From Octopus vulgaris (taxonomy: Eukaryota), in contig OX597822.1 in NCBI GenBank assembly GCA_951406725.2, positions 78,678,001-78,742,000 on the forward strand: a stretch of DNA of 64,000 nucleotides, given 5' to 3'. Below, in pieces: positions 1-59,465 of the stretch. The notes beneath the pieces are model-generated. The model worked only from the letters and a program-made list of their open reading frames with translations, was not told the DNA's origin and did no database searches. Within the stretch, counting starts at the first letter, position 1; the number at the start of each line of letters is the position of its first letter. The position numbers were made by a program, and so were the translations under genes.

Positions 1-1290
1 AGTTCTTATTCTGGTTCAGACGATGATCGGGGTCATATTCTGGTACAGACGTTGACCAGAGTTCTTATTCTGGTACAGACGTTGACCAGAGTTCTTATTC
101 TGGTACAGTTGTTGACCAGAGTTCTTATTCTGGTTCAGTTGTTGACCAGAGTTCTTATTCTGGTACAGACGTTGACCGGAGTTCTTATTCTGATACAGAG
201 GTTGACCAGAGTTCTTATTCTGGTTCAGACGATGATCGGGGGTCATATTCTGGTACAGACGTTGACCAGAGTTCTTATTCTGGTACAGACGTTGACCAGA
301 GTTCTTATTCTGGTACAGTCGTTGACCAGAGTTCTTATTCTGGCACAGACGGTGATCAGAGGTCTTATTCTGGCACAGACGATGATCGGGGGTCTTATTC
401 TGGTACAGACGTTGACCAGAGTTCTTATTCTGGTACAGACGTTGACCAGAGTTCTTATTCTGGTACAGTCGTTGACCAGAGTTCTTATTCTGGTTCAGTC
501 GTTGACCAGAGTTCTTATTCTGGTACAGACGTTGACCGGAGTTCTTATTCTGGTACAGATGTTGACCAGAGTTCTTATTCTGGTTCAGTCATTGACCAGA
601 GTTCTTATTCTGGCACAGATGTTGATCAGGGATCTTATTCTGGCACAGATGTTGATCAGGGATCTTATTCTGGTACTGACGTTGACCAGGGATCTTATTC
701 AGGTACAAATGTTGACCAGAGTTCTTATTCTGGTAGTGCCATTGACCAGGGGTCTTATTCTTGTACAGATGTTAACCAGAGCTCTTACTCTGGTACAGAC
801 GTTGATCAGGGGTCTTGCTCAGATACAGACGTTGATCAGGGATCTTACTCAGGTACAGACATTGATCAAGGATCTTATTCTGGTACTGACGTTGATCAAG
901 GGTCTGATTCAGGTACCGACGTTGATCAGGGGTCTATTTCTGGCACAGACCTTAACCGGAGGTCTTACTCTGACACAGACGTTGATGACAGGTCTTACTC
1001 TGGCTCAGACGTTGATAATGGGTCTTACTCTGGCACAGACATTGACGACGGGTCTAATTCTGGTACAGAAATTGATCAGGAGTCTAATTCTGGTACAGAC
1101 GTTAAGCAGGGGTCTTATTCTGGTACAGACGTTGACAAGAGGTCTAATTCTGGGACTGATTATGACCAGAAATCTTTTGCTGGGACTGACTTTGATCAAG
1201 AATCATTTGCCAGAACTAATTATCTCAAAGGGTCATTTTCTGGCACTGATTGCAGCCAGGATTCATATGCCAGTACAGACCAAAGATCGT
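1..1290 (+). repeat. 30-bp tandem repeat (agttcttattctggtacagacgttgaccag), homogeneous at 5' end and degenerating toward 3' end
   Basis: Directly visible 30-nt periodicity. Confidence 0.97.
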
Positions 1291-1313
1291 TTGTCAGTGC
1301 TTTTTATTATTAG
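30..1313 (+). CDS. Repetitive coding exon (5' end outside window): ~43 x decapeptide (S/G)SYSGTDVDQ, ending ...DQRSFVSAFYY*
   Basis: Frame +3 (codons start at 33, 36, ...) is stop-free until TAG at 1311-1313. Much unit-to-unit variation is synonymous at third positions in this frame (tat/tac, ggt/ggc/ggg, gat/gac, tct/tca, aca/act/acc). A G4 run at 29-32, against G5 in the equivalent unit at 238-242, shifts frame at the window edge. Confidence 0.7.
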   Translation, partial: GSYSGTDVDQSSYSGTDVDQSSYSGTVVDQSSYSGSVVDQSSYSGTDVDRSSYSDTEVDQSSYSGSDDDRGSYSGTDVDQSSYSGTDVDQSSYSGTVVDQSSYSGTDGDQRSYSGTDDDRGSYSGTDVDQSSYSGTDVDQSSYSGTVVDQSSYSGSVVDQSSYSGTDVDRSSYSGTDVDQSSYSGSVIDQSSYSGTDVDQGSYSGTDVDQGSYSGTDVDQGSYSGTNVDQSSYSGSAIDQGSYSCTDVNQSSYSGTDVDQGSCSDTDVDQGSYSGTDIDQGSYSGTDVDQGSDSGTDVDQGSISGTDLNRRSYSDTDVDDRSYSGSDVDNGSYSGTDIDDGSNSGTEIDQESNSGTDVKQGSYSGTDVDKRSNSGTDYDQKSFAGTDFDQESFARTNYLKGSFSGTDCSQDSYASTDQRSFVSAFYY

Positions 1314-6747: not shown

Positions 6748-6878
6748 TTTTACAGAACAAACGAAGCCGCAAAGTGAACCTACAAAGAATACGAGCAAAG
6801 CAGAAACGAGAACAGCAACAATCGAGGTACCGACATCTATATCAAGTTCGGCGCTTCAATGGTGATGTTATATCTCAG
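6748..6878 (+). CDS. Internal coding exon of unidentified host gene: (V)LQNKRSRKVNLQRIRAKQKREQQQSRYRHLYQVRRFNGDVISQ
   Basis: Long polypyrimidine tract with ttgcag acceptor at 6747 (alternative ttacag acceptor at 6755), phase-0 donor CAG|GTATGT at 6878/6879, non-repetitive open frame. Confidence 0.75.
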
Positions 6879-14589: not shown

Positions 14590-14681
14590 ATCCCTAGTGT
14601 ATGCAGTGGCACACACTCCATGGAGAAGGCTACCCTCAATAGCCCTGATGACCACTGTTCAACATCAAGTTCAACTTTAAG
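14590..14681 (+). CDS. Candidate 92-nt cassette exon IPSVCSGTHSMEKATLNSPDDHCSTSSSTL(R)
   Basis: Pyrimidine-rich upstream sequence, tgaag| acceptor, open phase-0 frame compatible with the 6878 donor, and AAG|GTAGTA donor in phase 2. Confidence 0.45.
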
Positions 14682-21361: not shown

Positions 21362-24300
21362 ATCATCATCATCATCATCATCATCATCATTTAGCGTCCG
21401 TTTTCCATGCTAGCATGGGTTGGACGGTTCTGCTGGGGTCTGTGAAGCCAGAAGGCTTCATCAGGCCCAGTCAAATCTGGCAGTGTTTCTACGGCTGGAT
21501 GCCCTTCCTAACGCCAACCACTCCGTGAGTGTAGTGGGTGCTTTTTACGTGCCACCCGCACTGGTGCCAGCCAGAGCTGGCAAACGGCCACGAACGGATG
21601 GTGTTTTTTATGTGCCACCGGCACGAGGGCCAGGCGAGGCTGGCAACGAACACGAAACGGGGCGGTGCTGGCAACGGTCGCGAAACGGAAGGTTCTCTTA
21701 CATGCCACCGGCACTGGTAACACATCTGCAATTTCCATTGATCGATTTCCATTGATCGATTTCGATTCTGATCCTCACTTGCCTCAATGGGTCTTCACAA
21801 GCAGAGTTTCGACATGCCACCGGCACTGGTAGCACATCCGCAATTTCCATTGATCGATTTCGATTCTGATCCTCACTTGCCTCAACACGTCTTCACAAGT
21901 AGAGTTTTGTGTCCCAAGAAGGGAAGGTATGCATACGTAGGCTGGCTCCATCCCATGTAGAAGGCCACGGGTTGTGGACTCACTTGTCCTGCCGGGTCTT
22001 CTCGCGCACAGCACACTTCCAGAGGTCTCGGTCTCTAGTCATTTCCTCGGTGAGACCTAAAGTTCGAAGGTCGTGCTTCACCACCTCGTCCCAGGTTTTC
22101 CTGGGTCTGCCTCTTCCACAGGTTCCCTCAACCGCTAGGGTGTGGCACTTTTTCACACAACTATCTTCATCCATTCTCGCCACATGACCATACCAGCGCA
22201 AACGTCTCTCTTGCACACCACAACTGATGCTTCTTAGGTCCAGCTTTTCTCTCAAGGTACTTACACTCTGCCGAGTGTGAGTACTGGCATTACACATCCA
22301 TCGGAGCATACTGGCTTCATTTCTAGCGAGCTTACGCATATCCTCAGCAGTCACGGCCCATGTTTCACTGCCATGTAGCATGGCTGTTCGTACACACGCA
22401 TCATACAGTCTGCCTTTCACTCTGTGCGAGAGGCCTTTTGTCACCAGCAGAGGTAAGAGCTCTCTGAACTTTGCCCAAGCTATTCTTACTCTAGCAGTTA
22501 CACTTTCAGCACACCCGCCCCCGCTGCTGACTTGGTCACCTAGGTAACGGAAACTATCAACTATTTCTAGTTTTTCTCCCTGGAAAGTGACAGAAGTTGG
22601 TCTCAGAGCATTTTCAGTGTTTATTGTTCCTGAGCATCTGCCACATACAAAAACCATCTTCCTAGTTAGCCTTCCTTTGACATTGCTGCATCTCTTATGT
22701 GTCCATAGCTTACACTTGGTGCATCTTATAGAGTTTCTACCTACACCTTTTCTACAGATCGAGCAGGGCCATCTACCTGAAGGTGTTTGTGATTTGTCTA
22801 CCTTCCTACTGATTACGACTTTGGTTTTAGCTAGATTGACTCTGAGGCCCTTTCGATTCTAATCCTTGTTTCCACACCTGAAACTTCTCCTCCAGTTCTG
22901 ATAGCGACTCAGCAATTAGAGCAAGGTCATCAGCATAGAGGAGCTCCCAAGGGCATCCTGTCTTGAATTCCTCCGTTATTGCCTGGAGGACTATGATAAA
23001 TAGGAGGGGCTGAGTACTGAGCCTTGGTGGACCCCTACCTCTACCCGGAATTCTTCACTGTACTCATTTCCAACCCTCACCCTACTAGCGGCGTCCCTAT
23101 ACATGGCCCGCACAGCTCTCACTAACCATTCATCTATCCCTAGTTTTCTCATTGCCCACCAGATAAGGGATCGGGGGACCCTGTCGAAGGCTTTCTCCAT
23201 GTCAACAAAAGCCAGGTACAGGGGCTTATCTTTGGCTAGGTATTTCTCCTGCAGCTGCCTTACCAGGAATATAGCATCAGTAGTACTTTTCCCTGGCACA
23301 AACCCAAACTGCATCTCATCTAAACTAACTCTCTCTCTAATTAGTTGGGCTATGACCCTCTCCGTAACCTTCATCACCTGGTCCAACAGCTTGATACCTC
23401 TGTAGTTGTTTGTATCTAGGGCATCACCTTTACCTTTGTAGCAGTTGACTATTATACTGCTACACCAGTCATTGGGTATGACCCCTTTGTGTATCACCTG
23501 ATTAACTATATGGGTGACTAGGCTATAGCCGACACTACCAGACATTTTGAGCATCTCTGCAGTGATTCCTGATGGGCCTGGGGCTTTCCCTGTCTTCATG
23601 CTTCTAATTGCCTTAGCTACCACAGAACTATCAACTCGGATAGCTGGTCCCTCTGTTGGGTCAACATTCGGCAGACTCTCTTTATCCCATTCATTTTCTT
23701 CATTCAGCAACCTTTCATAGTGGCATCTCCAAACCTCTCTCTTTGCATCCTCATTTAGCGCAAGTGAACCATCTTCCATGCGAACACACTTCTCTCCTAC
23801 CACATCACGATTCTCTCTCACACACTGTCTTGCAACACGAAACACCTCCAGTCTTTGGTCCTCACGGCGCAGAACATTGGCAAATTTTTTCTTATCTGCT
23901 TCCCCTCTGGCTAAATAAACCTGTCTCCTAGCTTCTCTTTTGGCAGTCTGATACAATTCCCTGCTACCCCCATTTTTCCAGACCTTCCAAGCCTGTCTCT
24001 TTTCTCTAATAGCCCTGTCTACAATATTGTTCCACCACCACGTTATTCTAGGTCGAGAGGGGACTTTGCACCAGCCACAGATCTGGTCAGTGGCTCTCAG
24101 CAGGTTGTCCCTTAGAAACGTCCAGCTGTCTTCTACCCCCTGTGATGCTCTATCCCCTTCTACTTCGTCAGAGGCTTCAAGTAATATGTCCCTAAATCTC
24201 TGTCCATTTGCAGGATCTTTAAGCTTCCAGATCCTTCTTCTCCATATTTGTCGTCTTCTGGTTGTCCTCCTAGTCCTGATCCTAAAGTCACTAACTACCA

Positions 24301-25319
24301 GTCTATGTTGTGGGGTACATTCTTCACCTGGGAAGGTTTTGGCATTTATAAGCAGCCATCTCTCCCTTTGCCTTGTAAGGATGTAGTCAATTTGGCTGGT
24401 ATGTTGGCCCGATTGGTAAGTGACTAGGTGGCTGGTAGGTTTCCTGAAGTTAGTGTTGCAAATCATAAGATTATTTGCATCGCAGAACTCCAGCAGCCTG
24501 GTTCCCTCCTCGTTGCGGGAGCCATAGCCGTAGCCTCCATGTACGCCATGGAAGCCCCCAGCATGTCGTCCAACGTGACCATTGAAGTCACCAGCCACAA
24601 AGATAAGGTCTCTGTCGTTCGTCAATGAGGTAGTCTGCAGTAGAGTGTCATAGAATCGGTCTTTCTGTCCATCGGGTAGCCCCGACTGAGGAGCATAGGC
24701 TGATATAATGGTTGCTAAACTATGATGAAGCACTAATCTAATCTTAAGTATTCTGTCACTTACTCTGATTACCTCAATTACTTTATCTACCCATTTCTCA
24801 GCGATAAGTATACCCACGCCACCAACCCCGTCAGTATTCCCTGCCCAGAAAATCTTGTACCTGCGTTCCTTGCCTGTGAGGAACCTAGCTGATCCTCCTC
24901 TCCACCTTATTTCTTGCATGCAACATATATCCACACATCTCCGTTCAAGCATCTCGACTATCTCACCAGACCTACCTTTCAGAGTGCCAACGTTGAGGGT
25001 GCCAACCCTGAGGGTGTGGAAGGCATGGGCTCTAGAGACCCTGGGACGGTGGACAGTAGCTTCGTGTACCTGAAAAGAAAGCTCGCATTTGGCAGAATTC
25101 ATGTGCAAAAAATGAAGTAGTAAAGTAGCCTTCAGTACAACCTGCATAACGCTAGCCTTTCATATTTTGCACTGTATGAACATTACCTTACATAGGTCGA
25201 GACTAGGGGTAGGGAGGGGTAGGGATGGTGAGAGCATTTGCAGTCTTCATGGGAAGCAACCCCGGAATGGAAGAGAATAGGAACTTCCGGCATGCGTGGT
25301 GGGGGTGGGAGGGCGGGTG
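21362..25319 (-). mobile_element. Near full-length RTE-clade non-LTR retrotransposon (5'UTR, single ORF, ~590-bp 3'UTR, (GAT)n tail)
   Basis: Single ORF with AP endonuclease and RT domains and the RTE-type C-terminus (GRGRPRKTW...DRDLWK); tail is (cat)n on the + strand at 21362-21389. Confidence 0.93.
21980..25147 (-). CDS. RTE ORF, ~1055 aa: APE endonuclease - reverse transcriptase - PHD-type zinc finger - C-terminal region; two compensating 1-bp frameshifts
   Basis: Endonuclease motifs GTLNV, QE, GDFNGH, IDY, QHR; RT motifs KAPGP, NYRGI, QFGF, DMEKAFD, GVHQGSVLSP; YADD at 22937-22926 lies in the shifted frame. ORFs 22991-25147 and 21980-22657 are in the same frame. Confidence 0.93.
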
Positions 25320-29428: not shown

Positions 29429-29548
29429 AACTACATACAAAGCATCCAACACAAGCTGTCTCCTGCCATGAGGAGTCTGACTACTATTCACTGCGAACCT
29501 GTTGTTGACCTAGAGAGTGCCAATACTACATTGACCCAAGTTTCATGA
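29429..29548 (+). CDS. Terminal coding exon of host gene: NYIQSIQHKLSPAMRSLTTIHCEPVVDLESANTTLTQVS*
   Basis: Strong acceptor ttttctcttctttatttttcag|; phase 0 matches the 6878 donor; TGA at 29546-29548; followed by an AT-rich UTR-like sequence. Confidence 0.65.
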   Translation, partial: NYIQSIQHKLSPAMRSLTTIHCEPVVDLESANTTLTQVS

Positions 29549-41823: not shown

Positions 41824-43833
41824 TGCACAAAAATGAAAAATAAATTAAATACGTTATTATTCAACCCAAGGATAACAAACGGGAAATACGTACTTCAACT
41901 TGTTACACAAAAAGTACGAAAAACTACACGTGCAAAACCATTTAACACCAGAAATGAACGGACCGGTACCCTATGAAATAATGACTATCAAAATAAAGGG
42001 CCGGACGTTATTCCTAACGTCCCGTAAATAAAATTTTAAAAAGCATAAATGGATACGCGAGGAATATATTTCAATTCTACACGCTTATTTTACAGCAGTG
42101 CTCTACTCACAGAACGAAAACACAACATATACATATAAAATCTGGAAGGAAAATAACCTATATAAAGATTAGGATAAGCAATGAATCCTAATAAACTAGC
42201 TAACATACGAAGATATATTCTCAAAATAAAAAAATATCAGAAATAGAAAAAGAACACTTATAAGGGAAAATACATCAGGAACATGTAGATAGTAACCACA
42301 CAGCAATACCAAATAATATCATAAGTACTGGGACTGTAAAATACGAAGACAGACGTAGCATGTCCAACAAGAAGCAAGCAATGAAAGACAACAAACCCAG
42401 ACTGTAGGAATGTATAATGATGAGCAAAATGCACCAAACCAGAACACCATAGTTAAAAATATAAACGAGAGAGAATGCGAAACAAATCTAAAACCTGGAA
42501 ACAGTGAAGGCGAAGCTAATGATTATGCTACTCTAAAAATGAGTATAATCAAAGAATTGAAAGCCACAGATCTCAGTATAGGCCACCGATTGTACCTCCC
42601 AAAAATTAAAATTGATACTAAAACAACATCAATAATAAATAGCATGAACCTGGCCGTCATAGAACTAATAGCCACAGAAACAAATGTCAATATGACCAGG
42701 CTAAATGATATTAAATATTGCAGCAGCTGCTATGACCACAAAAGAAGCTGGATACTCCCTAAAACCCATCCAAACAGGAGCATATCACCACCAAAACAGA
42801 CCCTGTATATAAACAATATTCAGAAAATAGAAAATAAGAGAAAGGATCTGTCAATCCTTAATGTAACTAGTAGACAATCAACACTATTAAGTAACAAGAA
42901 GAGAAGGAAAATACTACATGAATACAAAATTACAGACAAGGCATATCTGAGGTAAAAGAACAGCTAAAGCAAATTATCCTCGCCAAAACACAAAGTATCC
43001 GCCGGTATGAGAAACACCAACGTTTCTTTGAACAAAACAAAGTGTTCAGCTCCAACCTCAGAAGATTCTACCAGGAACTTGCCAAAAATGAAATAGAGAT
43101 CAATGCAACACCAACAGCAGAAGTGAAAGAATTATGGAAAGAAATATGGTCGGCGAAGGAACAACCTCAGCAAAGATATATCAAAACAACGAACACAGCA
43201 TATGAACAACTTTGGACCCCTATAACAACTGAAGAGGTCACCCAGGCACTGCAAAAACGAAGCAACTGGAAGGCACCTAAGCACAAGATCCCCAACTTCT
43301 GTTTAAAATACTTAACAGGAACCCATAAAAAGCTGGCTGAGAAATTTAATGAACTACTGAATGCTCAGAGGAGAGAAAAGTATCCTAATTCCCAAATCCG
43401 CTGAAACAGCAAACCCTCAAAGTTACAGACTGATAACTTGAAAAAATTCAGGCCTTGTGCCTGGAGTATAAAAGAATATCGCAGAGAACGAGCAAACATC
43501 TGGAAGAAAGCAACTTGTTTCCAGAAGAGCAGAAGGGATGCTGCAAGGGCTCATACGGTTGTAAAGATCAGTTACTGATCAATAAAGCCATAACTGAAAA
43601 CAGCCACAGAAAGAAGAATCTAAGTATGGCCTGGATCGCGTACCGAAAGGCTTTTGATAATATTCCCCACACAGGGATCCAAGAAACACTAGTCATGAAC
43701 AAGGTAGCACCAATAATCATAAAATATATAAAACATTCCATGAATAAAATGGCAGACAGTGCTACAGCTCCAGACAAAAGAGGGACTCATAAAAAACCAA
43801 AGCCATCTCCATTAGAAGAGGAATGTTCCAGGG
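41824..43833 (+). pseudogene. Decayed R4/Dong-like non-LTR retrotransposon, 5' half, starting right after (TAA)n
   Basis: KHKWIREEY..ILHAYF, IRRYEK..RFFEQNKVF...RFYQEL, NWKAP..IPNF.LKYL, PEEQKGC.KGSYGCKDQLLINKAI, LSMAWI.YRKAFD; many frameshifts. Confidence 0.8.
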
Positions 43834-43834
43834 A

Positions 43835-44717
43835 TTTTGGAAGCATTAACTTTGTGAGAGACGCAACTGTCAGGTGATCACCCTGCTCATTTTTCTTGTC
43901 TAAAAGATATGGTTGCGACCGCAGATGATATTGACATGAATCGGTACAAAGACAGTATCACGGGATTGCAGCGAGAGGTTGAGCAACGGTTTCAGATTTT
44001 TGATGAACTTGAGACAGATTTCAGTTTTTTGCTCGCCATTTACAGTTAACGCCTCTGATCTGCCGTCAACATCCAACTTGATATGGTTGACTTACAGCGT
44101 GATTCAGAGTTGAAGAACAAATTTTCCTCGCTGGACTTAGATACATTTTATTAGTATCTCTCGCCAAAGTACCCCAAACTAACAGCCCTTGCTGCGAAAG
44201 TTTTGTGCATGTTCGGGACTACCTACCTTTGTGAACAAGGTTTCTCTGTACTGAACATCAATAAAACAATTCTGCGCTCAAAGCTCACACATAAGCACCA
44301 AAATGACATCTTGAAATTTGCTGCTACTCAGGATTTGATACCTGATATTGATGCACTTGTGAAGGAGAAAAGATGCCAAGTTTCAGGAGCATATTGAAAA
44401 TAAATGATAAAAAGTGAAGTCGTTTTAAATGTTTTTCAAAATGTTTTTTTAATTTATAAATTGTATACATTTACAAGGCAGTGTGACCACTCAGTCTCAC
44501 TAACATTTCTCACTTTTACTTGTTCAATGTTTTGCAAAAACAAATTGTTCTTTAAACATGAACATTTTCAGAATGTACTTATTTACACTAAAAGAAAGAG
44601 AAAATTTTGAAATTGTTATCTATAGGTTCTTATGCCATGATTTTACTGGTCCAGTCCGCTTGAGATCAAATTGGGTTGATATGTGGCCCGTAATCTAAAA
44701 TTAGTTTGACACCCCTA
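43835..44717 (+). mobile_element. hAT (Charlie/GTF2IRD2-like) transposon 3' fragment with terminal inverted repeat
   Basis: YPKL..LAAKVLCMFGTTYLCEQGFS.LNINK...RSKLT hAT dimerisation motif; ends gtggcccg...gtttgacacccct. Confidence 0.8.
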
Positions 44718-49553: not shown

Positions 49554-50416
49554 TGTAAGAACGACCATACGAAAGGAGAGGTGACGAATGGATGACTCCT
49601 TTAATACATCGCACGGTCGCTTACAATAAAAGCAAAATGGATGAGTACAAGTGCCAGAAGGAAAAGGAAGAGACACAGTCGATAGAAGGTTTGAGAGAAG
49701 ATTTTATTTAGGTGTTAACATGTGTGTATGCGTCATAATTACATATATAATAATAATAATAGACAGGCCGTCATGCATACATAATGTGTATACATGTACA
49801 AACAAGGGTGTATGCGTGTGAGATAAAATACAGAAAATAAAAAGAGTCTATAACAGGGCGTTAGAAGAATGTTCTCGCACATTGAAGATAAATACCAGTT
49901 CATTGTAAGGTACACAATAGTTGAAGAGCTGTAACAAGAAGTTGTAGCGTAGAAGCAGAGCTGGTTGAAGCACGTGTCATGTAAGAAGTTGTGGCTACTA
50001 TGCCGCTGCCGGTTACTTGATACAGCAAGATCTCGCAGGTTGTACTTGCTGTTAACCATGGTGAAGTAATTCACAAACAGTGTGGAGTTAACCTGAGCTA
50101 ATGTTGTTGTGTACGTAGAGACTTTAAAACGGAGGTGACAGAGATGGAGGTCCTGATGCTGCTGGTGTTGTCTGTCGCTGGAACTGGCTGTGTGCTCTGT
50201 GGTCAGTGGTTAGACCATAGAAGGTCTAGAACCAATGACTTCGACTCGATGTTGAACTAGGTTTTTATAGTGACTAGTAGGCTCCAACGGAGATTTAGAA
50301 GACTGTGTCAGGGGACCTTATCAGAAGGCTGCGATTGGTTGGGTTGCACATTGACGCGCAATAGAGCAAGAGACAAATTGCGCCAATACCAACCAATCAG
50401 AGTAGTGGACACAACA
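49554..50416 (-). mobile_element. Possible solo LTR; part (49690-49900) is similar to 51548-51780
   Basis: TGT...ACA ends, minus-strand TATA-like ctataaaaa near 50265 and AATAAA near 49705; no TSD found. Confidence 0.35.
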
Positions 50417-50419
50417 ATT

Positions 50420-51542
50420 ACTTCTTGGACACATAGTTGTTCCAAGATCCAACGGCACATTCGTGCTCCGCTTGGACAATTTTCTCCTCCAGAGGCCCGT
50501 ATTCGCCATGTCCACATTGACCTGGTTGGACCATGGCCTGTGAGTCGCGGATTCTCATTTCTTGACTTGTGTCGATCGTTTCTCCAGTTGGCCAGAAGCC
50601 GTTGCAATAGCAGACATTTCCGCTGTATCTGTTGCTCAAGCTTTTGTCTTTAACTGGATTTCCCTCTTCGGAGTTCCGTCCAGTTTAACTACTGATCGCG
50701 GACGCCAGTTTTGAAGCTTCTTTATTTCGTGAATTGTCACGAGTTCTAGGTGTGCATCATATTCGCACGACCAGTTACCATCCAGCTTCCAACGGGATGG
50801 TCGAACGATTTCATAGACAGCTCAAGCCGCACTACGTGCCTCTCCAGATCCGCAGTCCTGGATAGAATTTCTGCCAATTGTGCTTCTTGGATGTCGTACT
50901 GCTGTCAAGGCAGACCTGGGTTTCTCCTCTGCAGAGCTGCTGTATAGTACCACACTAGTATTGCCTGGTACGATGTTGGTGCCAGACATTTCACAGCTTA
51001 ATGATCCAGCGTCGTACGTCACCAGACTTCGCACCTATTTTTCTAATCTTCCGCCCATGGGTTCCAGGGACCAATCTCCACCCTCTAATGTCCCACCAGA
51101 TATTGACTCTTGGTCGCATGTTTTTGTTCGAGATGACTCTGTCAAGAGAGCTCTTGTTTCTCCTTACAAAGGACCCTTTCGTGTGCTTCCTCGCACACCT
51201 AAAGTTTTTACGATCGATATGAATGGTCGTACTGAGACCATTTCTGTAGATCGACTTAAAAGAGCCTATTTTGAGGTGTCCACATCTTTCGATGACACCG
51301 CTGCCACGCCCACCTTTGAGCCTACACGTGCGCCTTTGCCAACACCATCACCTACACATGCACCTTTGACAACATCAGCACCTACAGCACCACCTTCGTC
51401 GTCGCAACCTGCCCCGAGCAGACCCTATGTCACCAGGATTGGCCGAACTGTTCACTGGCCCAAGAAACTTGCAAAGACTATTTATGTTCGACATTCTCTA
51501 TTGTGTGTTCGACATAAGTACAAACAATGCGTATGTGTATAA
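50420..51542 (+). pseudogene. Gypsy/Ty3 integrase, frameshifted
   Basis: HVHIDLVGP, LTCVDRFSSWPEA, TTDRGRQF, TTSYHPASNGMVERFHRQLK (DDE core) and GPY/F motif SPYKGPFRVL...ISVDRLK. Confidence 0.92.
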
Positions 51543-55175: not shown

Positions 55176-56190
55176 AATAATTACTCCGGCACAGCTCAAG
55201 TCTTGAGTAGTTGTAAAGCATTTAATACTAGAAATACAAACACCTGAACAAAATAAATTATCAGAGAGAGAGAGAGAGAGAGAGAGAGCATATACAGAAA
55301 GCTAGACAAGTCGTGTAGCTATTTTAATGGTATTGTTATGAATGGTTCAATTTAAGGACAGTTGGTTGCGACCTACTTTTGGAATAAATCCATTGTCCTG
55401 TCAGATTCAGGTGGATTGATTAGTTCTGGGGAGACCTGCGACCCTTACAGGTGAAAGAAAGTTCGTTGAAAAACACCCCTTAAAAAGGAGGAACTGTGAG
55501 CTGTAAACACAGTCGGCCGGCAGCTCTACACAGTTGGGGACAGAGCGAGTTAGTGACAGGTAGTTTCTGCGATGACAGTGAACGTGAAAGAGGAAGACAG
55601 ACAGGGAATCTGAGGAGCTGACAAGCGATAGAATGATAGAGAATGTGAAAGAGGAAGACAGGCAGAGAGTATTACAGAGCTAAGAGAGTGGGACTACGGT
55701 ATGAGGGCACTTGGCTGTTGTTGACGGTATATGTTTAATTATGTTTTGATATGTGAAAAAAGAAGGAAAAAGAATTAATGTGTTGGAAAAAAAGAGAAAG
55801 AAGGAGAGAGGAAAAAGAAAGAACTGTTAAAGAAAGAAGGAGAAAGACTCTAATGTATTGAACTGTATCGTTAATGTGAACGTTATTTGTTTTAATTGGA
55901 TTTGAACTGTTGTCTCTGAACTGTATATTGCATCTGCATGCTGTTGATTCTGTTGCTTGTATTTACTATGATGTACCTGATGTATCACATTGTATTTGTT
56001 GTAATATTTGTATAAACTGTTGTTAAATGTAGCCAATTGCCTTCCGCCGTCTCTCTCTGTATCTCTTCCTGTTTGTTGTTGTCGTTATATCTCTGGTCGC
56101 CGGTTGTCGTGTTCGCCGATGCCATCCCCACCGGGTCCTCTCTGTGTGGCGAATTCTCCGTTAGACTGAGCGAGGGTGGTCCGTAACAAC

Positions 56191-56208
56191 TGGTGTCAGA
56201 AGTGGGAT
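56191..56208 (+). promoter_or_regulatory. Primer-binding site complementary to tRNA-Leu 3' end
   Basis: TGGTGTCAGAAGTGGGAT, 2 nt after the 5' LTR; complement of ...AUCCCACUUCUGACACCA. Confidence 0.85.
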
Positions 56209-56242
56209 TGTCCTGATTGCTGCGGTCGATCGGCTGTTCGCT

Positions 56243-57478
56243 ATGGGTTCGATGGAGGCACGAGCTGGCAGCCAGACTGGAGAGGAAGAGATCTCGCTTG
56301 CCTTGATTGTAGAGATGTTGAGGGGCCAGATGACGCAGACAAACACATTCTTGGAAAGGATGGACAAGAGGCGACAGGGCCTGTGGGCAGATCAGGAAGA
56401 GCCTGAGGTTATGGATGGGTCAGCCCTGGAGGATCAGTGTTGGACCGGGGATAAGAGTGGTCATGTGGGCGGAGATTGCCCATCAAGTGAAGTGGATAGT
56501 GAAGAGTGTGGGTTGGAAGAACCCCGTGTTGCGGAAACTGAGGCGAATGCTGCTAAGTCTGATGTGGAGAAGCCTGAAAAGCCTGCTGAATGTGTGTTGT
56601 CTGCTGCTGTTGTTCCGTGTATGGAGCCTTTGGCATCTCGACCCCTGTCCTCCGGAACTCAGGACGAAGAGCTGGTGAAGTCTGGAGCTGATGTCGCTGA
56701 GTCCGAAGAGCCGGCTGTGTGTGGGGTGGTCGCTGCGGTTGATGTGCCGTGTGTGAGTCCTTTGGTGTCTGAGCCCCTGTCTCTTGGCGCTCAAGAGGAC
56801 TGTCGGACGAACTTGCATGTTGTGAAGCCTTCGGTGCAGAAGCTGGTGAGGAAGAGGACCAAGCCTGGTGACGAGGCGAGACGGCTGCGAACGGTGGTAG
56901 GTCTACCAAGACCAGGAAGACTGCTCCAGTGTTGGGTGAGCTTTGTGTTTGATGGTTGTTTGGGGCTGGTGGAGCCCGACAGGCAGTGCCTAGTGAAAGC
57001 CCAAGTGAGGGTCGGCTGGACCCTGGTAGAGGCAGAAGTTGACAGAGCGCTGGTTGGGTCGGCCGATTTATTGAAGGCTGCGCAGGCGATTTGTAGAGGG
57101 CAAATCGTGGAACTGCGCCAGACGGTGAACCAGCGGCAGGGCCAGTTCTGCCAATACAGTGAGGCAGTTGGAGATGGTGGTCTACCTGTGCAGTTGCGGA
57201 GGCGGTCTACAGGGAGTCGCCGGTGCTTGGTTGGCACTCGGGTGTTGGTGGAAAACGCAGAACGTTTCATCGACCCGGGCGGTCGTCGCTCGAGGAGGCA
57301 GCGGGGCCGGAGGATGGTCCCAGTACGGCAGCGAAAGAAGAGATATCGGCGACAGGGAACAGTGAAAGGGCGAAACGGTCCCTGGTCGTCGGCCTTAGTT
57401 GTGCAGAATGGAGACGGCACAGCAAGGTGCTACGTGGGGTATAGAGCCCTGAGGAAGGTGGCCACTGTGAAGGATTAG
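56243..57478 (+). CDS. 411-aa ORF of the LTR element: degenerate Gag zinc knuckle, internal duplication, Arg-rich segment, RT N-terminal relic
   Basis: CWTGDKSGHVGGDC (broken CCHC); C-terminal GPWSSALVVQNGDGTARCYVGYRALRKVATVKD resembles Gypsy SPWSSP.V.V.KKDG..R.CVDYR.LN..T.KD. Confidence 0.7.
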   Translation: MGSMEARAGSQTGEEEISLALIVEMLRGQMTQTNTFLERMDKRRQGLWADQEEPEVMDGSALEDQCWTGDKSGHVGGDCPSSEVDSEECGLEEPRVAETEANAAKSDVEKPEKPAECVLSAAVVPCMEPLASRPLSSGTQDEELVKSGADVAESEEPAVCGVVAAVDVPCVSPLVSEPLSLGAQEDCRTNLHVVKPSVQKLVRKRTKPGDEARRLRTVVGLPRPGRLLQCWVSFVFDGCLGLVEPDRQCLVKAQVRVGWTLVEAEVDRALVGSADLLKAAQAICRGQIVELRQTVNQRQGQFCQYSEAVGDGGLPVQLRRRSTGSRRCLVGTRVLVENAERFIDPGGRRSRRQRGRRMVPVRQRKKRYRRQGTVKGRNGPWSSALVVQNGDGTARCYVGYRALRKVATVKD

Positions 57479-59465
57479 CCGGACCCTGCTTGTGTGAGGG
57501 ATTTAAGGAACTCCCCCAGACGGTGCGCCCATTGTAGGCGGCTCGTAGGAGGTCTCGCAGCCTTGGCGGAGATGTTACCCAAGCCGCAGAGGGAAGATGC
57601 CAACTTGTGGCCGGTGGTGAAGTGGTGGCCGTGGCAGGCGAGACCCCCGGAGGAGAAACTACCCAAGGACACCTCCAGTTCCTGGAACATCTTATGGAGC
57701 TCGCCCTCGGAGGTACGAGTTTAGTGTGCTTTTGTCGGGTCGACAAAGCTTAGGTAGGAGATAGTGTTATGAATGGTTCAATTTAAGGACAGTTGGTTGC
57801 GACCTACTTTTGGAGGAACTGTGAGCTGTAAACACAGTCGGCCGGCAGCTCTACACAGTTGGGGACAGAGCGAGTTAGTGACAGGTAGTTTCTGCGATGA
57901 CAGTGAACGTGAAAGAGGAAGACAGACAGGGAATCTGAGGAGCTGACAAGCGATAGAATGATAGAGAATGTGAAAGAGGAAGACAGGCAGAGAGTATTAC
58001 AGAGCTAAGAGAGAGGGACTACGGTATGAAGGCACTTGGCTGTTGTTGACGGTATATGTTTAATTATGTTTTGATATGTGAAAAAAAGAAGGAAAAAGAA
58101 TTAATGTGTTGGAAAAAAAGAGAAAGAAGGAGAGAGGAAAAAGAAAGAACTGTTAAAGAAAGAAGGAGAAAGACTCTAATGTATTGAACTGTATCGTTAA
58201 TGTGAACGTTATTTGTTTTAATTGGATTTGAACTGTTGTCTCTGAACTGTATATTGCATTTGCATGCTGTTGATTCTGTTGCTTGTGTTTACTTTGATGT
58301 ACCTGATGTATCACATTGTATTTGTTGTAATATTTGTATAAACTGTTGTTAAATGTAGCCAATTGCCTTCCGCCGTCTCTCTCTGTATCTCTTCCTGTTT
58401 GTTGTTGTCGTTATATCTCTGGTCGCCGGTTGTCGTGTTCGTCGCTGCCATCCCCACCGGGTCCTCTCTGTGTGACGAATTCTCCGTTCGACTGAGCGAG
58501 GGTGGTCCGTAACAGTATATTAAGCTGTACCCTATCCTGCCCATCACGCCATTGCAGTAACACATTTCTGCACATCTACATTGTCAAATCACAAACTTAA
58601 AAGAAAAAGAAAAATGGGTCAAGAATGAAATAGATAAAGGAAGTATATTATAATATTGGTGTAATCTGAAATGTCAGAAAAGACAGGTTGGTCATAGTTG
58701 AAACACATGTGAAGATAAATAGATAAATAAATAAAGGAATGAATGAAGGAAGGACGGAAGAAATGAAGCTTATATTGTTTATTGTTGCATGAGACAGAAT
58801 GTGTGTGGAAAGACGGGATCGCCCATAGCTATCCCATCACGAGCTTCACAACAATAACAACAAAATGACTTTATCATTATCGCTGGTCACGTTTTACAAT
58901 TATCGAATTAAAACTATCCTCAGAGTTGGAACCACTTCTTGATTTGCTTTGTTTCGTTTTTTTATTTTTATTTTTTTCATCGTGAGTACAACGTCAAGAT
59001 ATGATTGGTCTGTTTTAAAACATTTCAAATTAAAAGTACAAACTATCTTATGACAATGATCACAAATTACACCCGGTGCACTCCACAGCCCAAGAGCTTG
59101 TCTTTCATTACAAAATTACATAACATCAGAGACTGTACGCTTAATGGACACACTCATATGTAGACATATTTTAGACTGCATATAACGATTATACCGACAT
59201 CACCATTATCACCACCATCCTCATCATTTAACGTCCACTATTCCATGCTTGCATAGATCAGACGGAATTTGTTAAGGTAGATTTTCGTCAAACCCTCACT
59301 TTCCATGCGAGGTAATATTTCTCCTGTGGCCAGACATATTCTTCACAGAAGACTAGATACCTCGCTTGTATGACGATAATACTTATTTACGACCATCACG
59401 TTGTATTTTGGCAAGGGAACACACAAACACATACACTGACACGCTTATACATTTATGTGTGTGTT

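Follow-up and report, generated by a model that had tools for sequence, protein, structure and literature searches.

Genes and features at the locus

The window, i.e. the whole stretch of 64,000 nucleotides that was analyzed, corresponds to G000:C9:78678001-78742000; places upstream of it are given as negative numbers (C9 position minus 78678000). On its plus strand, an exon at 6748..6878 encodes a peptide that matched Octopus TMEM198 at 100%. The exon map of this gene was established by tblastn, and the boundaries of the exon at 14590 were read from the sequence. Two coding exons (-25777 to -25573 and -20550 to -19987) and an optional 63-nt exon (-9129 to -9067; L006 871-933) are located upstream of the window on the same strand; the second coding exon and the 63-nt exon both end in a phase-1 donor. 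The constitutive exon at 6748..6878, entered in phase 1 and left in phase 0, encodes the conserved basic tail. It is followed by a 92-nt frameshifting cassette exon at 14590..14681, which belongs to isoforms X1 and X3, and by the last coding exon at 29429..29548, which is read in two frames. Four isoform types, X1 to X4, of 365, 360, 344, and 339 aa were found in three Octopus species; annotated isoforms use the phase-1 acceptor at 6748, and the tail is already alternatively spliced at two places.

The 92-nt cassette switches the frame of the last exon. A matching alternative tail was found in a more divergent relative (P0024), and the switch therefore looks older than Octopus. Counterparts of the 63-nt exon are present in Argonauta and cuttlefish proteins (P0004, P0007, P0021), and none was seen in the retrieved snail and nemertean proteins.

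Elsewhere in the window, two long frames of 722 and 292 aa are located on the minus strand at 21980-25159; they presumably encode a LINE endonuclease and reverse transcriptase. The fragments at 42359-43877, 50261-51542, and 55985-58583 resemble a decayed LINE, a retroelement with an integrase, and an element that has direct repeats on either side, respectively.

Published accounts present TMEM198 as a seven-pass scaffold for CK1 and LRP6 (PMC8473786, PMC8494741, PMC3278829, PMC12157921), and its tail is predicted to be cytoplasmic (PMC8494741). The TMEM198 domain (PF13886) spans residues 55-245 of the octopus protein.

A 30-bp repeat array in an intron of TMEM198

In the intron preceding exon 6748, a 30-bp tandem array is located on the TMEM198 strand. 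Tandem Repeats Finder reported a period of 30, 39.9 copies, and 83% match over positions 1-1195. The full array consists of 69 units, 68 of them full and one of 27 nt. The window holds 43 units (1..1289), which translate in register as (S/G)SYSGTDVDQ in frame +3 from unit 2 on and decay towards the 3' end, in agreement with the count of about 43 given in the preliminary description of this DNA. About 780 nt more of the array, with 25 full units and the 27-nt unit, extend upstream (-776 to 0). A polar expansion had been proposed, with units homogeneous at the 5' end and diverged at the 3' end; this polarity turned out to be an effect of the window edge. The centre of the array is homogeneous and contains duplicated blocks, and both ends are decayed.

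Frame +3 is open from 27 to the TAG at 1313 (428 aa), as had been claimed, beside a hydrophobic frame +1, which is open over 1-1353 (450 aa, or 433 aa counted from a TTG at 52). The consensus unit is open in four of the six frames. The repeat peptide is strongly acidic, with 130 D/E vs 25 K/R in 696 residues. Frames on the minus strand were ruled out by many stops. An origin from a dispersed satellite or a transposon was also ruled out: all 27 unit-pattern matches fall inside this single array, and the open leader described below is single copy, both according to genome searches that give lower bounds. Overall, the element is real, confined to a single locus, and unannotated, and it shows the marks of a coding exon.

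A one-base frameshift in the array

In this assembly, the frame is broken only by a 1-nt homopolymer slip at 28..31 on the plus strand, where GGGG stands in place of the GGGGG at 238-242 in the copy of a duplicated block. The start at 30 assigned in the preliminary description falls into this break, and the frame itself begins 1,462 nt upstream of the window. Block comparison was combined with contigs from sequencing runs. Runs X1, X5, and X8, which carry different organism labels (two DNA by guess, one of unknown kind), each contained a 108-nt contig with five G. The first 31-mer of this contig was found only in the two duplicated blocks, and the contig starts directly after the T/G site that separates them, the pattern to be expected if both blocks have five G. 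The frameshift is probably an assembly error or a private allele, with the reservation that contigs can drop variants such as a four-G allele. If five G are correct, the candidate exon would code for about 925 residues.

The assembly furthermore differs from all four runs (X1, X5, X8, and X14) at one base and lacks a TTA that is present in X1, X5, and X8 (L015 1624 and 2128 region). Given the missing TTA, the 27-nt unit is probably private or an error as well.

An open leader starting at a phase-matched candidate acceptor

The repeat frame runs 1,462 nt upstream of the window, and the whole unannotated stretch comprises about 2.8 kb. The candidate exon begins at -1462 (G000:C9:78676538), and its 3' half occupies positions 1..1313 of the window, up to the inferred stop TAG at 1311..1313. 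Its upstream part is a leader of 228 stop-free codons (-1462 to -777), which grades from degenerate repeat into unique sequence. The repeat frame has 0 stops in the leader, whereas the remaining five frames contain 6-18. Of 20,000 dinucleotide-Markov sequences, 0 were free of stops in the given frame; simulations of neutral decay yielded P=0.0003-0.027. The hydrophobic frame +1 was ruled out as the coding frame by its 9 stops in the leader and by a pN/pS of 0.99 among the units; frame +3 is supported as the biologically plausible one. A five-residue hydrophobic periodicity was detected in the leader (13/21 vs 11/84 at aa 124-228); it persists at aa 47-126 (11/16 vs 14/64), a part in which DNA identity to the unit does not exceed background.

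The open frame starts 4 nt ahead of a site at -1462 that resembles a phase-1 acceptor. This candidate acceptor ranked third of 959 intron AG sites with a score of 15.4, as compared to 14.9 (63-nt exon) and 19.8 for the real neighboring acceptors, all by an ad hoc score of our own. Its phase is that of both upstream TMEM198 donors. The chance of an open leader starting at a top-ranked, phase-matched acceptor was roughly estimated as 8e-4. A high-copy interspersed repeat (L014 3400-3516) stops about 20 nt short of the candidate acceptor on its 5' side, and the branch point may be located in or beside it. Downstream of the TAG, ATTAAA occurs near 1889 and AATAAA near 1975, as expected by chance in AT-rich DNA.

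Because the array is located on the same strand as TMEM198, follows a phase-matched acceptor-like site, and is open over about 925 codons apart from one slip, it is tentatively read as the central part of an alternative last exon that octopus TMEM198 would use rarely, a reading that we place close to, though short of, an even chance. Such a last exon ending at TAG 1313 was one of two endings proposed in the preliminary description; it is the best reading of the locus, but no junction was seen among those listed and the exon is absent from annotated isoforms.

Selection on the repeat units

Among the 52 distinct units, 114 of 214 mismatches were found at third positions of frame +3 (column-permutation p=0.019), and pN/pS was 0.44 in this frame vs 0.99 in frame +1. 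The earlier view that unit variation is largely synonymous was not borne out: counted by distinct variant, 13 of the 20 synonymous changes that are possible were realized, as compared to 35 of the 67 nonsynonymous ones, a difference that was not significant (Fisher p=0.23). In neutral array simulations, a pN/pS of 0.44 was reached in 0 of 450 runs, and only 1-4% of them kept the frame open; when the lowest value of all six frames was taken, 0.44 was reached in 1-10%.

Differences between runs X1, X5, X8, and X14 gave another picture: seven of the eight coding differences were nonsynonymous and one was synonymous. Such a result is expected with P=0.30 under neutrality, 0.09 at an omega of 0.44, and 0.008 at an omega of 0.2; it favors neutrality over purifying selection about 3 to 1 at an omega of 0.44. 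Hence, the element may be a formerly coding exon or gene fragment that is now relaxed, with the centre of the array still turning over as a minisatellite. This explanation accounts for an old coding signal (open leader, periodicity, and acceptor) beside these recent differences and for the absence of the exon from all annotated isoforms read; it also fits the weak in-frame repeat similarity that continues past the TAG (17/30 at 1320-1349) and the interspersed repeat next to the acceptor. We nevertheless consider it unlikely: about 925 codons contain no stop, no frame-breaking indel was found among those listed under two other organism labels, and the sole frameshift looks artefactual. Contigs of X5 and X8 over the leader and the 3' array likewise contained no indel or stop among those listed, an observation of little weight at such tiny divergence.

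Comparison with control arrays

Fifteen other 30-bp arrays of this genome, chosen for resemblance to the peptide or to the Decapeptide family PF25296, served as controls and provided 47 open frames. In 10 of the 15, a frame with at most one stop-bearing unit had a pN/pS ≤0.5, mostly with few distinct units. Therefore, the ratio of 0.44 is not decisive, although the count of synonymous and nonsynonymous changes by frame, proposed earlier as a check, came out in favor of frame +3. In this genome, it is common for 30-bp arrays to contain more than one long open frame. Measured against the controls, the initial coding arguments, i.e. two open frames and synonymous bias, are weak.

The same observations speak for an ordinary intronic 30-bp minisatellite, in which open frames and a pentapeptide-like translation arose by chance: the consensus unit and many other arrays are open in several frames, low pN/pS frames and PF25296 matches also occur in control arrays, and the distinct-variant test was not significant. 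The leader sets the locus apart from the controls. No acceptor score above 11.7 was found in the first 12 codons of any of the 47 control frames, and only two of them extend more than 100 codons 5' of the array, as compared to 217 for the candidate; one of these two is a simple repeat and the other looks like a real coding exon. A minisatellite leaves unexplained why the leader is open over 228 codons, why it starts at a top-ranked acceptor of the matching phase, and why periodicity persists at the protein level where DNA similarity is gone; we regard this explanation as distinctly unlikely.

Some other 30-bp arrays of this genome deserve mention in their own right. A stop-free array of 15 units at L044 1506-1954 (G000:C5, about 52777720-52778170) translates as QGTLRSLDVN, resembles the (S/G)SYSGTDVDQ repeat at Q, G, D, and V, and ends in (TA)n; its pN/pS was 0.38-0.39 in that frame only, and it has no long leader or strong acceptor. 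At G000:C7:109004190-109007393 (L054, minus strand), a long Ser/Lys/Thr-rich frame runs into a 30-bp array with an apparent frame change, possibly another coding repeat with a slip. A related unit was common to three 30-bp arrays on separate contigs (L057, L058, and L059 on C20, C18, and C16 of G000), which suggests a dispersed minisatellite family.

Search for transcripts and proteins

The candidate exon was absent from all 21 cluster members of types X1-X4, of which sequences were available for 12 and lengths (≤365 aa) for all. The leader had no match among 1.84 billion protein representatives. Two word-based protein searches, one for longer forms and one for near-length forms with words from residues 1-260, yielded no matching protein, an exact look-up of four candidate open reading frames found none either, and blastp of TMEM198 plus leader against the 150 representative matches gave nothing. 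The retrieved TMEM198 proteins were all ≤375 aa and none had a repeat tail; one of the queries was the normal tail exon, which is blind to a tail-swapped form. No description of such an exon was found in the literature on octopus TMEM198, on TMEM198 isoforms and alternative splicing, and on octopus minisatellite exons, as judged by titles and abstract openings.

No transcript with the exon was found in the sequencing runs covered here. In four shallow contig sets (three guessed to be RNA and one of unknown kind), the joints and loose ends listed include none at the acceptor; for three runs guessed to be RNA, none of the joints listed enters or leaves the array. Run X13 (RNA by guess) contains a 1554-nt contig that meets exon 6748 with its last 130 letters only and enters it from 1,423 letters that fall off the 10-kb stretch, consistent with an exon-skipping form. 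A contig of run X12, also guessed to be RNA, runs unspliced across the candidate acceptor. In the RNA-guessed runs, contigs were no deeper over the open frame than over unique intron, where depth is low, and X14 covered the frame in part; the level of expression cannot be read from contigs.

Why TMEM198 isoforms lack the element would be explained if it belonged, as the last exon, to a separate gene nested in the intron on this strand, with a first exon of its own elsewhere in the intron or a start at the first ATG of the leader, codon 107, from which a frame indeed exists. Its product would be soluble; with a signal peptide from an upstream exon, it would be secreted. We consider such a gene very unlikely: the frame is already open over the 106 codons preceding the ATG, beginning at the acceptor, the protein searches found no such protein, and a crude exon scan listed no candidate in the interval from the 63-nt exon to the acceptor; that scan needs a donor within 350 nt and missed the present exon too.

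Since the frame continues as far as TAG 1313, it is simpler to assume a last exon than splicing out of the array. The second ending in the preliminary description, a phase-0 splice at 1292/1293 to an acceptor at 6756, is not supported: the putative donor TTT|GTCAGT (1290..1298) is weak and matches 5 of 9 positions of the U1 consensus vs 6-8 for four real donors checked, no such joint was found among those listed, and the isoforms use 6748. This route is the weaker version of an internal TMEM198 cassette that would leave by a phase-1 donor (703, 853, 913, or leader sites) into 6748 and keep the normal tail. Such a cassette is highly improbable: its candidate donors, three CAG|GTAC sites (GT at 703, 853, and 913, within 700..918), do agree with 6 of 9 U1 positions, a score shared by the genuine 63-nt exon donor, and fit the phase of 6748, but no such joint was present among those listed, the frame stays open for 400-600 nt past these sites to the TAG, and internal exons of 2.2-2.4 kb, as would result here, are unusual.

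Similarity of the repeat to pentapeptide proteins

A Pfam search of the repeat peptide gave Pentapeptide_4 (PF13599) at 32.7 bits (cut-off 38, E 8e-8) and Decapeptide PF25296 at 20.8 bits (cut-off 45), both below threshold; PF00805 was not listed. PF25296 matches 24 other places in this genome. The best PDB sequence match was the IcmE/DotG repeat (E 2.5e-9), followed among others by "beta1" proteins and Qnr. Three of the four best representative matches are rich in PF25296 or pentapeptide repeats, with identities of 18-32% among the top four. PF25296 and IcmE/DotG have the ten-residue period in common with the octopus repeat, which stays below the PF25296 gathering score; IcmE/DotG repeats are predicted to be beta-helical (bioRxiv 10.1101/312009).

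AlphaFold produced two beta-rich models of low confidence (pLDDT 38 and 45). Structural alignment of the pLDDT 45 model gave 6fls (Z 14.1, rmsd 3.6, 189 residues aligned, nearly one-to-one) and EfsQnr (Z 13.4, rmsd 4.0, 192 aligned); pectin-lyase-type beta-helices tie with the pentapeptide proteins in Z. A Foldseek search found nothing at E≤0.001.

By definition, pentapeptide repeats comprise at least eight contiguous five-residue repeats with the consensus [STAV][DN][LF][STR][G] (PMC8145042). The octopus array contains 68 full decapeptides, i.e. 136 half-units, and thus far more than eight. The consensus was not found: over the 68 units, the five positions agree in 28/0/3/62/57 cases in half 1 and in 67/56/2/2/0 cases in half 2. 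The octopus repeat has in common with pentapeptide repeat proteins (PF00805/PF13599; Qnr, MfpA, and the SV2 luminal domain; PMC8145042) the five-residue period and a central hydrophobic residue. In contrast to these proteins, the consensus is split, one half-unit providing [STR]G and the other [STAV][DN], and the centre is Y or V and almost never L/F (3 and 2 of 68). SV2, whose luminal domain has 4.5 coils, is a precedent for a pentapeptide domain in an animal membrane protein (PMC8145042), whereas the octopus repeat would be cytoplasmic and far longer. The evidence does not indicate homology of the octopus repeat to pentapeptide proteins; it probably originated independently by local duplication. 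Even so, the repeat may fold like a pentapeptide protein, although it fails the consensus and the Pfam gathering tests.

The preliminary description had also considered a solenoid of the ice-nucleation type. A solenoid as such is weakly supported by the sub-threshold Pfam matches and the low-confidence model; no Pfam family of bacterial ice-nucleation proteins appeared at E≤1, and their repeat period is 8/16/48 residues as compared to 10 in the octopus repeat. A disordered, multiply phosphorylated tail is an alternative to the solenoid. The array contains 108 [ST]xx[DE] and 64 [DE]xx[ST] motifs, which are taken as kinase motifs and are expected in any S/T/D-rich sequence.

A proteoglycan-like function had been suggested as well. 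Ser-Gly with acidic neighbors is a glycosaminoglycan attachment motif, and the 54 SG dipeptides in acidic context within 696 residues resemble proteoglycans of the serglycin/syndecan type. Glycosaminoglycan attachment is performed by Golgi glycosyltransferases, and an octopus tail fused to TMEM198 would be cytoplasmic and beyond their reach: the candidate exon would join after residue 256/277, past the seventh helix, in the tail predicted to be cytoplasmic (PMC8494741). Such attachment is therefore unlikely; the idea would be reopened by a secreted product of a nested gene.

Discussion

The host gene is one whose octopus isoforms already vary in the tail, and an alternative last exon would add to this variation. 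If the candidate acceptor were used, the first 256 or 277 residues of TMEM198 with the seven-pass domain would be kept and the conserved basic cytoplasmic tail of 83-88 residues would be lost. A leader of 228 residues and about 69 acidic decapeptides would be gained, resulting in a protein of about 1,180-1,200 aa. The array probably grew and was homogenized from its centre by block duplication. Each decapeptide is predicted, with low confidence, to form two pentapeptide faces with inward Y/F or V/I in a right-handed beta-solenoid. If a rise of 0.48 nm and 20 residues per coil apply, its length would be about 17 nm.

The function of such a variant is a matter of speculation. It might still pair with LRP5/6 through its membrane helices, and its long Ser/Thr/Asp surface might act as a decoy or scaffold for casein kinases on a protein known to recruit those kinases; the variant might thereby damp or redirect normal TMEM198 activity in a restricted tissue or stage. 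Combining these steps, octopuses would have evolved de novo, by local tandem duplication and without bacterial ancestry, an acidic pentapeptide-type beta-solenoid of 690 residues as a switchable cytoplasmic tail of TMEM198, which turns a kinase-recruiting scaffold into a kinase decoy and whose stepwise birth can be read in the decaying flanks; in its entirety, this scenario is doubtful.

If the exon is not spliced, the locus provides a lesson in how 30-bp arrays of the octopus genome mimic coding repeats. If it is spliced, a conserved Wnt regulator of 360 residues has a hidden isoform more than three times longer, which is missing from the octopus gene models examined here, and its alternative tail would offer a direct way to test the role of the TMEM198 tail. 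Furthermore, the locus would then show how a coding minisatellite gives rise to a new domain, as the whole transition between unique sequence and homogeneous repeat is preserved.
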